NCBI RefSeq assembly: GCF_003334305.1
Contig: NZ_QOWS01000007.1
Length of the DNA: 64,000 nucleotides
DNA from: Escherichia coli
GTDB lineage: Bacteria > Pseudomonadota > Gammaproteobacteria > Enterobacterales > Enterobacteriaceae
Reading direction: 5' to 3' (one strand)
Below are positions 22,690-55,077 of the stretch, in pieces. The notes beneath the pieces were generated by a model. The model was not told the DNA's origin. It ran no database searches and saw nothing but the letters and a program-made list of their open reading frames with translations. Positions within the stretch are counted from its first letter, which is position 1. Each line of letters begins with the position of its first letter. The translations under genes and the position numbers were made by a program.

Positions 22690-23943
22690 TTATGCGTAAA
22701 CCGGGTAACGTGCGCAGATGTCGAGAACTTTACCTTTGATGCGCTCGATAACGGCTTCATCATTGATGCTGTCCAGCACGTCACACATCCAGCCAGCCAG
22801 TTCTTTCGCTTCTGCTTCTTTGAAGCCGCGACGCGTAATTGCCGGAGTACCCACGCGAATACCGGAGGTCACAAACGGGCTCTTCGGATCGTTCGGTACG
22901 CTGTTTTTGTTGACGGTGATGTTAGCACGGCCCAGAGCGGCGTCTGCTTCTTTACCGGTCAGGTTTTTATCGACCAGATCAACCAGGAACAGATGGTTAT
23001 CAGTACCGCCGGAAACCACTTTGTAGCCGCGTTCCAGGAACACTTCTACCATCGCTTTAGCGTTTTTAGCGACCTGCTGCTGGTAAGTTTTGAACTCAGG
23101 CTCCATCGCTTCTTTCAGAGCAACCGCTTTACCGGCGATTACGTGCATCAACGGACCGCCCTGACCACCAGGGAAAACGGCAGAGTTCAGTTTTTTGTAC
23201 AGCTCTTCGCTACCACCTTTCGCCAGGATCAGGCCGCCGCGCGGACCCGCCAGGGTTTTGTGAGTGGTGGTAGTAACAACGTGAGCATGAGGAACCGGGT
23301 TCGGGTAGACGCCAGCAGCAACCAGGCCCGCAACGTGCGCCATATCAACGAACAGGTAAGCACCGATGCTGTCAGCGATTTCACGCATTTTCGCCCAGTC
23401 CACCACGCCGGAATATGCAGAGAAACCACCGATAATCATTTTCGGCTTGTGTTCTTTGGCTTGTTTTTCCAGATCGGCGTAGTCGATATGACCGGTAGCA
23501 TCGATACCGTAAGGAACGATGTTGTACAGTTTACCGGAGAAGTTAACCGGAGAACCGTGAGTCAGGTGACCGCCATGCGCCAGGTTCATACCCAGAACGG
23601 TATCACCTGGTTCCAGCAGCGCGGTGTAGACCGCAAAGTTAGCCTGGGAGCCGGAGTGCGGCTGGACGTTAGCGTAGTCAGCGCCGAACAGTTCTTTCGC
23701 ACGATCGATCGCCAGTTGTTCAACGATATCAACATACTCGCAACCGCCGTAGTAGCGTTTGCCCGGATAACCTTCAGCATATTTGTTGGTCAGCTGAGAA
23801 CCCTGCGCCTGCATTACGCGCGGGCTGGTGTAGTTTTCGGAGGCGATCAGTTCGATGTGCTCTTCCTGACGTACTTTTTCCTGCTCCATAGCCTGCCACA
23901 GTTCGGCATCATAATCGGCAATGTTCATTTCACGCTTTAACAT
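22690..23943 (-). CDS. glyA: Serine hydroxymethyltransferase GlyA, 417 aa
   Basis: ORF track 22690..23949; start set to ATG 23941-23943 ([12 protein letters not shown]...) preceded by AGGAG RBS. Confidence 0.95.
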
Positions 23944-24221
23944 CCGCATCTCCTGACTCAGCTAACAATAAAATTTTTGGCCTTTATAGGCGGTCCTGTT
24001 GGACAACGGCGAACAGTATAACCGAATCATTGTGCGATAACAGGTCTTGACAAAGGAATTTACGCAAACGATTACCTTCAGGCTACGCAAGGCTTTGGAG
24101 AATAAAGAGCTTGCAACCGGAAACGGATTTCTTTTCAGGTTTGTGATGCAAATTTTTCACTTCATCACATTCTTTCTGAAAAACACCAAAGAACCATTTA
24201 CATTGCAGGGCTATTTTTTAT

Positions 24222-24242
24222 AAGATGCATTTGAGATACATC
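24222..24242 (+). promoter_or_regulatory. NsrR operator in the hmp promoter
   Basis: aagatgcatttgagatacatc, an AAGATGCATTT...ACATC inverted repeat matching the remembered NsrR site at hmp, about 30 nt upstream of the start codon. Confidence 0.7.
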
Positions 24243-24270
24243 AATTAAGATGCAAAAAAAGGAAGACCAT

Positions 24271-25461
24271 ATGCTTGACGCTCAAACCATCGCTACAGTA
24301 AAAGCCACCATCCCTTTACTGGTGGAAACGGGGCCAAAGTTAACCGCCCATTTCTACGACCGTATGTTTACTCATAACCCAGAACTCAAAGAAATTTTTA
24401 ACATGAGTAACCAGCGTAATGGCGATCAACGTGAAGCCCTGTTTAACGCTATTGCCGCCTACGCCAGTAATATTGAAAACCTGCCTGCGCTGCTGCCAGC
24501 GGTAGAAAAAATCGCGCAGAAGCACACCAGCTTCCAGATCAAACCGGAACAGTACAACATCGTCGGTGAACACCTGTTGGCAACGCTGGACGAAATGTTC
24601 AGCCCGGGGCAGGAAGTGCTGGACGCGTGGGGTAAAGCCTATGGTGTACTGGCTAATGTATTTATCAATCGCGAGGCGGAAATCTATAACGAAAACGCCA
24701 GCAAAGCCGGTGGTTGGGAAGGTACTCGCGATTTCCGCATTGTGGCTAAAACACCGCGCAGCGCGCTTATCACCAGCTTCGAACTGGAGCCGGTCGACGG
24801 TGGCGCAGTGGCAGAATACCGTCCGGGGCAATATCTCGGCGTCTGGCTGAAGCCGGAAGGTTTCCCGCATCAGGAAATTCGTCAGTACTCTTTGACTCGC
24901 AAACCGGATGGCAAAGGCTATCGTATTGCGGTGAAACGCGAAGAGGGTGGGCAGGTATCCAACTGGTTGCACAATCACGCCAATGTTGGCGATGTCGTGA
25001 AACTGGTTGCTCCGGCAGGTGATTTCTTTATGGCTGTCGCAGATGACACACCAGTGACGTTAATCTCTGCCGGTGTTGGTCAAACGCCAATGCTGGCAAT
25101 GCTCGACACGCTGGCAAAAGCAGGCCACACAGCACAAGTGAACTGGTTCCATGCGGCAGAAAATGGCGATGTTCACGCCTTTGCCGATGAAGTTAAGGAA
25201 CTGGGGCAGTCACTGCCGCGCTTTACCGCGCACACCTGGTATCGTCAGCCGAGCGAAGCCGATCGCGCTAAAGGTCAGTTTGATAGCGAAGGTCTGATGG
25301 ATTTGAGCAAACTGGAAGGTGCGTTCAGCGATCCGACAATGCAGTTCTATCTCTGCGGCCCGGTTGGCTTCATGCAGTTTACCGCGAAACAGTTAGTGGA
25401 TCTGGGCGTGAAGCAGGAAAACATTCATTACGAATGCTTTGGCCCGCATAAGGTGCTGTAA
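24271..25461 (+). CDS. hmp: Flavohemoglobin (nitric oxide dioxygenase) Hmp, 396 aa
   Basis: ORF track 24250..25461; start set to ATG 24271 ([11 protein letters not shown]...) after AGGAAG RBS. Confidence 0.95.
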
Positions 25462-55010: not shown

Positions 55011-55024
55011 TTGATTTAAATCAA
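55011..55024 (-). promoter_or_regulatory. FNR binding site (promoter-proximal) in grcA promoter
   Basis: ttgatttaaatcaa = perfect TTGAT-N4-ATCAA FNR consensus. Confidence 0.8.
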
Positions 55025-55063: not shown

Positions 55064-55077
55064 TTGTTTTACATCAA
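55064..55077 (-). promoter_or_regulatory. Second FNR-like site (promoter-distal) in grcA promoter
   Basis: ttgttttacatcaa, near-consensus FNR site centred 53 bp from the first, consistent with the remembered -40.5/-93.5 arrangement. Confidence 0.65.

Follow-up and report, generated by a model that had tools for sequence, protein, structure and literature searches.

The question raised by the glyA-hmp intergenic region is whether an imperfect inverted repeat near the start of hmp serves as an operator for the repressor NsrR, and whether this operator lies over the core promoter from which hmp is transcribed. The window (the whole stretch of DNA that was analysed, 64 kb in length) is E. coli chromosome, and the following features define the locus.

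22690-23943, minus strand: glyA coding sequence, encoding serine hydroxymethyltransferase (open reading frame list and RefSeq annotation)
23944-24270: complete intergenic glyA-hmp divergent control region, 327 bp (RefSeq annotation of the identical E. coli locus)
24260-24265, plus strand: hmp Shine-Dalgarno sequence AGGAAG, 5 nt before the ATG of the annotated start at 24271 (read from the sequence)
24271-25461, plus strand: hmp (hmpA) coding sequence, encoding the NO-inducible flavohaemoprotein (open reading frame list and RefSeq annotation)

RefSeq places the start codon of glyA at the ATG 23943-23941 on the minus strand and that of hmp at the ATG beginning at 24271 on the plus strand. The open reading frame list also contains in-frame ATG codons upstream of each gene (23949 for glyA and 24250 for hmp), but properly spaced Shine-Dalgarno sequences precede the annotated starts and not these upstream codons. 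The 327-bp region is present once in each of 5426 out of 5426 complete E. coli genomes at a threshold of at least 95% identity. An Rfam scan of 23500-24700 found no RNA element, returning a single sub-threshold chance match (mir-67, E 0.86), and a terminator scan of the region found none. Elsewhere in the window, the annotation reference B95 delta A carries an IS1A between mltF and tadA (L082, 10518-11215), and the window lacks this element at the corresponding point (~35800). The insertion accounts for an offset of 776-777 bp between B95 delta A and the window.

The original prediction had pointed to an inverted repeat, aagatgcatttgagatacatc, at 24222-24242, about 30 nt upstream of the hmp start, and to a -10 sequence, tataag, at 24219-24224. 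Both strings and both sets of coordinates are exact, and the 21-mer ends 28 nt before the ATG. This 21-mer belongs to a real NsrR element, but taken as a repeat it is an asymmetric cut, and the true unit is 23 bp long, as listed here together with its symmetric core.

24222-24244: NsrR operator, a 23-bp imperfect inverted repeat of 11-1-11 architecture, AAGATGCATTT-G-AGATACATCAA (identity to the published site, motif score and conservation)
24224-24242: 19-bp symmetric core GATGCAT-N5-ATACATC, matching the consensus gATGyAT-N5-ATrCATc of Rodionov et al. (PMC1274295)

The full 23-bp sequence is AAGATGCATTTGAGATACATCAA. Its left half is a perfect copy of the half-site consensus AAGATGCATTT, and its right half agrees with this consensus at 7 of 11 positions. 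The two arms are complementary at 6 of 7 positions in the 19-bp core and at 7 of 11 in the full 11-1-11 site. An exact-seed repeat finder did not report an inverted repeat at 24222-24244 because the arms are imperfect. Similarly, a search for the ideal palindrome AAGATGCATTTNAAATGCATCTT with up to three mismatches returned no match, because the hmp site differs from this ideal at four positions. Considered simply as an inverted repeat, the element is weak and statistically unremarkable, and its significance comes from the motif match.

This match was evaluated with a symmetrised position weight matrix (PWM) in leave-one-out form, for which Table 4 of Mehta et al. 2015 (PMC5320621) supplied 25 distinct 23-mers, with the hmp site omitted. 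The resemblance to the NsrR motif that had been claimed for this repeat is borne out by the scan, wherein the hmp operator, at 17.85 bits, is the best match in the 64-kb window and falls inside the 12.2-32.1 bits covered by the training sites. The per-position probability of such a score is 4e-7 under the composition of the window and 7e-6 under that of AT-rich intergenic DNA. Two secondary matches were discarded as chance, both being within the range of the simulated maxima (mean 13.7 bits). One, at 34261-34283, covers the first codons of mltF with 12.6 bits, and the other, at 38930-38952, lies between shoB and acpS with 14.5 bits.

One might suppose that the hmp site is likewise a chance near-palindrome in AT-rich DNA, conserved only by virtue of the overlapping -10 region, start site and 5' UTR rather than by repressor binding. 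The incomplete complementarity of the arms (7 of 11) and the failure of the repeat finder to detect them are in keeping with this idea, as is the finding that a score of 17.85 bits was reached somewhere in 9 of 200 simulated 64-kb sequences generated by a first-order Markov model. However, only ~0.002 chance matches are expected within the 327 bp of the control region. It is the location, beyond the score alone, that makes the NsrR match convincing.

How the operator is placed on the hmp promoter depends on the following elements.

24197-24202, plus strand: hmp -35 hexamer TTTACA, identified by promoter scan and invariant in 79 Enterobacteriaceae sequences
24221-24226, plus strand: preferred hmp -10 hexamer TAAGAT, from the scan result TTTACA-18-TAAGAT, ~98-99% conserved
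24233, plus strand: predicted hmp transcription start, to within 1-2 nt, located 7 nt downstream of the -10 hexamer and coinciding with the operator centre

The hexamer TATAAG (24219-24224) overlaps TAAGAT by 4 nt. The spacer between TTTACA and TAAGAT measures 17 nt in 40 species and 18 nt in 35, whereas that between TTTACA and TATAAG would measure 15 nt and 16 nt, respectively, in the same numbers of species. In addition, the positions of the -10 consensus that are critical (T, A and the last T) are all retained in TAAGAT. This spacing and the retained T, A and T positions indicate that the -10 element is better read as TAAGAT at 24221-24226. The proposal that the operator overlaps the -10 element stands with either hexamer, since the site begins inside both of them, but the original call of TATAAG is displaced by 2 nt from the preferred position.

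A full-text literature search for the hmp transcription start found none, and the start used here is the predicted one. Work by Poole in 1996 and by Cruz-Ramos in 2002 reportedly centres an FNR site near +5.5, which would give the same start at ~24233. Relative to this position, the operator would have the start at its centre and would span approximately -11 to +12. Its placement, from inside the -10 element to ~12 nt past the predicted start, covers the core promoter of hmp, an NO-stress gene.

If the operator is functional, its sequence should be maintained in related species. A scan with the Hmp protein, using one genome per species, yielded 80 Enterobacteriaceae loci whose Hmp proteins are 81-99% identical. 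The divergent arrangement of glyA and hmp is kept in 78 of these, and the remaining two have only ~20 nt of sequence upstream of hmp, which is too short to include glyA. The resulting alignment comprises 79 distinct intergenic regions with a mean identity to E. coli of 75%, and identity to E. coli in this alignment is distributed along the promoter as follows.

24161-24188, stretch upstream of the promoter: lower identity, often well below 50%
24197-24202, -35 hexamer TTTACA: 100%
24219-24226, -10 region: 98-99%
24222-24244, 23-bp operator: 84%
24246-24258, stretch directly downstream of the operator: 46%

An equivalent NsrR site is found in all 79 intergenic regions, always in the same register and adjoining the same -10 element, and the junction TATAAGATG occurs in 72 of the 79. 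With the NsrR matrix, the orthologous sites for which a 23-mer could be aligned without gaps score 17.9-31.3 bits. The central operator base, 24233, is among the least conserved columns (~30% identity), which fits a 1-bp spacer between two 11-bp half-sites. Substitutions among the orthologues, such as ATACATC to ATGCAAC or ATACAAC, remain inside the degenerate motif. This pattern is the signature of selection on a binding site, beyond selection on the promoter alone. Part of the conservation across the operator could come from the promoter elements on its flank and from the 5' UTR.

These data bear directly on the notion of a chance palindrome that is preserved by its neighbours. Overlap with the -10 element could explain the conservation of the left half, but the right half (ATACATC and nearby positions) lies downstream of the start and is also conserved, and it is only beyond the operator that identity drops to the value given above. 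Furthermore, published ChIP-seq and EMSA data show that NsrR binds. We consider a chance origin to be almost certainly wrong, and we return to the reading of the site as an NsrR operator.

There are a few unusual arrangements among the aligned loci. An uncultured Buttiauxella metagenome-assembled genome (L066) has a 12-nt insertion upstream of hmp that creates two overlapping NsrR-like sites, AAGATGCATTAAAAGATGCATATTAAATGCATCAT. Two other Buttiauxella loci (L063 and L080) have ~14 extra nucleotides between TTTACA and the -10 element, and thus their -35 element must be located elsewhere.

The E. coli site is also well represented in the literature. Rodionov et al. 2005 predicted the NsrR motif gATGyAT-N5-ATrCATc upstream of hmp by comparative genomics and reported that it is conserved in enterobacteria (PMC1274295). 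In the ChIP-seq study of Mehta et al. 2015, the hmp NsrR site is given as TTGATGTATCTCAAATGCATCTT, identical to 24222-24244 of the window when reverse-complemented, and in E. coli CFT073 an NsrR peak was found between glyA and hmp (PMC5320621, Table 4). The same authors list single 11-bp motifs, AAGATGCATTT and AAGATGCAAAA (PMC5320621), which correspond to 24222-24232 and 24248-24258, respectively. Their stated distances to the hmp start codon, 44 and 19 nt, match motif centres at 24227 and 24253 in the window. With the Salmonella hmp site, which is nearly identical, EMSAs have shown a shift by NsrR and weaker binding when NO is present (PMC10783083). Expression from a Phmp-GFP reporter depends on NO, with no signal in its absence and induction on exposure (PMC7477088), and so the NO-responsive regulation that was expected of this region had already been demonstrated. 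NsrR is described as a strong repressor of hmp, with FNR and, more weakly, Fur as further negative regulators and MetR as a positive one (PMC2884951).

Thus, the element in the window and the published E. coli hmp NsrR operator are the same object, as the 23-bp sequence, the gene context and the distance to the hmp start are all identical. This E. coli operator is reportedly also the subject of work by Bodenmiller and Spiro in 2006 and by Partridge in 2009. The best explanation for the locus is that it is a glyA-hmp divergent control region in which a sigma-70 promoter for hmp is covered by a single 23-bp NsrR operator, and we assign this a probability of roughly 93%. The identity to the published site, the motif score, the position on the promoter and the conservation are direct observations, and operator occupancy, NO-sensitive binding and NO induction are drawn from the literature.

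A plausible sequence of regulatory events can be proposed on this basis. NsrR is an Rrf2-family iron-sulfur repressor, and a dimer of holo-NsrR would bind 24222-24244. Given the geometry described above, the bound protein would be expected to occlude the -10 element and the start site and thereby keep hmp off. NO would destroy or nitrosylate the cluster, whereupon NsrR would leave the DNA and RNA polymerase could transcribe hmp. The resulting flavohaemoglobin would then oxidise NO to nitrate.

Comparison with known operators helps to position the hmp site within the NsrR regulon. The E. coli ytfE and hcp operators have the 11-1-11 architecture and the half-site AAGATGCATTT in common with hmp, and the left half of the hmp operator is identical to both half-sites of ytfE. 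However, the ytfE site is a near-perfect palindrome that scores 32 bits, whereas the hmp site scores 17.9 bits and its right half, AGATACATCAA, has four mismatches. The hmp ChIP-seq peak is modest, with a value of 32 compared to ~250 for ytfE and hcp, a difference of ~8-fold (PMC5320621).

The hmp site of Salmonella Typhimurium, AAGATGCATTTGATATACATCAT, is the orthologue of the E. coli site and is likewise fused to the -10 element, and its binding by NsrR and its NO sensitivity were established by EMSA (PMC10783083). Compared with the E. coli site, it has T in place of G at operator position 14 and T in place of A at position 23, changes that raise the score to 26.2 bits. A similar arrangement is found for Vibrio vulnificus hmpA, where a single 11-1-11 site lies over the start, the NsrR footprint extends from -2 to +18 and NO relieves repression (PMC8175989). 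In this case, hmpA is divergent from nsrR itself rather than from glyA, and Lrp and CRP act as co-regulators in place of the MetR, PurR and FNR of E. coli.

Enterobacteria rely mainly on Hmp to detoxify NO under aerobic conditions, and for survival in macrophages it is important that NsrR represses hmp tightly (PMC2884951). The site is thus of biological importance. The observation made in the original prediction is confirmed and its interpretation is supported, and all of it has already been published. Over approximately twenty years, the hmp NsrR site has been predicted, mapped by ChIP-seq and used in EMSAs and reporters, so there is no new biology here. The main use of the result is as a calibration, wherein a true regulatory site was correctly identified from raw sequence. 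What goes beyond the published picture, namely the score of the Escherichia site as the weakest orthologue, a half-site restricted to Escherichia and several strain variants, amounts to quantitative footnotes.

There is a second possible regulator whose site is nested within the operator.

24231-24244: FNR-like site TTGAGATACATCAA, in the right half of the NsrR operator, with one mismatch to TTGAT-N4-ATCAA

FNR bound at this site could add anaerobic repression to the control exerted by NsrR. A more far-reaching proposal is that the palindrome is mainly an FNR operator, such that FNR at TTGAGATACATCAA, downstream of the start, is the main repressor and NO acts via the FNR cluster. The single mismatch to the consensus speaks for this proposal, as do reports that name FNR as an hmp repressor and cite prior data supporting FNR binding (PMC2884951, PMC3688515). 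The pattern search is also informative, because it recovers both sites upstream of grcA as a positive control. At up to one mismatch, it gives 7 matches in the window compared to 2.3 expected by chance. However, an FNR match with at most one mismatch is found at hmp in only 11 of the 79 species, whereas all 79 have the NsrR match. Myers et al. 2013 list a predicted FNR site at hmp and cite prior binding evidence, but they observed no FNR ChIP-seq peak there in vivo (PMC3688515). For these reasons we judge a primary role for FNR to be improbable, and NsrR remains our choice as the main repressor. Myers et al. suggested that many such FNR sites are masked by other proteins (PMC3688515), and NsrR on the overlapping operator would be an obvious candidate for masking the one at hmp.

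Upstream of grcA (yfiD), the sites recovered by this pattern are a perfect FNR palindrome, TTGATTTAAATCAA, and a site with one mismatch, at 55011-55024 and 55064-55077, respectively, 53 bp apart. We take this pair to be the known yfiD FNR sites, whose spacing it matches.

Among the 79 sequences compared (loci L002-L081), the Escherichia operator is the lowest-scoring orthologue, at 17.9 bits versus 20.9-31.3 bits elsewhere. The loss of score is due to the G at position 14 and the AA at positions 22-23, and sites of the AAGATGCATTTAAAATACATCAT type are present in most other genera. The poor score relative to the orthologues and the modest ChIP-seq peak, which agree with each other, suggest that repression via the E. 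coli site may be incomplete. A further element, which also distinguishes Escherichia, is located downstream.

24248-24258, plus strand: second, weak 11-bp NsrR half-site AAGATGCAAAA, in a direct repeat (PMC5320621)

The repeat finder reports an exact 9-nt direct repeat, TAAGATGCA, whose two copies at 24221-24229 and 24246-24254 are spaced by 25 bp. The second copy contains the upstream ATG at 24250 that is in frame with hmp. Mehta et al. 2015 list the second half-site as a low-scoring single motif designated 'hmp (19)' (PMC5320621). It is present only in Escherichia (4 of the 79 sequences) and its columns average 46% identity.

These features raise the possibility that Escherichia has specifically weakened its hmp NsrR operator, kept the nested FNR-like site and gained the second half-site AAGATGCAAAA 26 bp downstream, resulting in a leakier form of NsrR control that partly competes with FNR. 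We hold this to be rather doubtful. If it were true, the 'silent' behaviour of the FNR site in ChIP-seq would be accounted for by competition from NsrR, and the weakened operator would represent a quantitative twist on a known system and not a new mechanism.

Within E. coli, the operator is invariant among the strains examined. With a 79-nt promoter query, 1787 of 5419 E. coli genomes (about a third) fall in the 95-99% identity band, carrying a 98.8%-identity variant that differs at one position. Alignment of one strain with this variant shows a change between A7 and A8 in the poly-A run at 24252-24258, upstream of the hmp Shine-Dalgarno sequence, and the window carries the A7 allele of this run downstream of the operator. 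A more extensive change is present in E. coli MS14384 (L084, NZ_LR130562.1), which has a 29-bp tandem duplication, TTTGAGATACATCAATTAAGATGCAAAAA, of the region equivalent to 24230-24258 in the window. This duplication comprises the right operator half, the FNR-like site and the second half-site, and it lies downstream of the promoter, ahead of the hmp Shine-Dalgarno sequence.

The proposal that the same region also serves glyA is supported by the divergent arrangement in 78 of 80 loci, the conserved MetR-like and PurR-like boxes listed below and the literature on MetR (PMC5002191).

24015-24053, minus strand: candidate glyA core-promoter elements TTGTCA (24053-24048), AATGAT (24031-24026) and TATACT (24020-24015), from scan and conservation
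24062-24077: PurR-like box ACGCAAACGATTACCT in the glyA upstream region, with three mismatches to the 16-bp palindrome ACGCAAACGTTTGCGT
24125-24137: second MetR-like box GGATTTCTTTTCA, a weak match with three mismatches to TGAAnnTnnTTCA and a tentative assignment
24147-24159: MetR-like box TGCAAATTTTTCA, nearer to hmp, with one mismatch to TGAAnnTnnTTCA and TGCA...TTCA conserved across genera

The two MetR-like boxes are separated by 22 bp from centre to centre and their TTCA arms are conserved, with the weaker box GGATTTCTTTTCA being identical in 54 of the 79 species. The pattern TGAAnnTnnTTCA with one mismatch is not enriched in the window (14 matches compared to 15.9 expected), and thus the assignment rests on position, conservation and the literature, wherein two MetR sites are described in the hmp-glyA region (PMC5002191). 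The six commonest variants of the PurR-like box, which together account for 73 of the 79 species, all have ACGCAAACG as their left half. Regulation of glyA by PurR is said to have been described by Steiert et al. in 1990. The MetR-like boxes (24125-24159) and the PurR-like box would be expected to tune the shared region, mainly for glyA. The only other match to the PurR pattern in the window, ACGAAACCGTTTGCGT at 34074-34089, is located 77 nt upstream of the purL start codon. Presumably this box is the purL operator, and as such it provides a positive control for the pattern.

For the glyA promoter itself, the scan returned TTGTCA-16-AATGAT. AATGAT was rejected as the -10 element because it is poorly conserved (23 of 79), in contrast to TTGTCA (70 of 79) and TATACT (73 of 79). 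The two conserved hexamers are 27 nt apart, and the pairing of -10 and -35 elements for glyA is ambiguous. A perfect TTGACA is also present on the plus strand at 24047-24052, where it overlaps the minus-strand TTGTCA.
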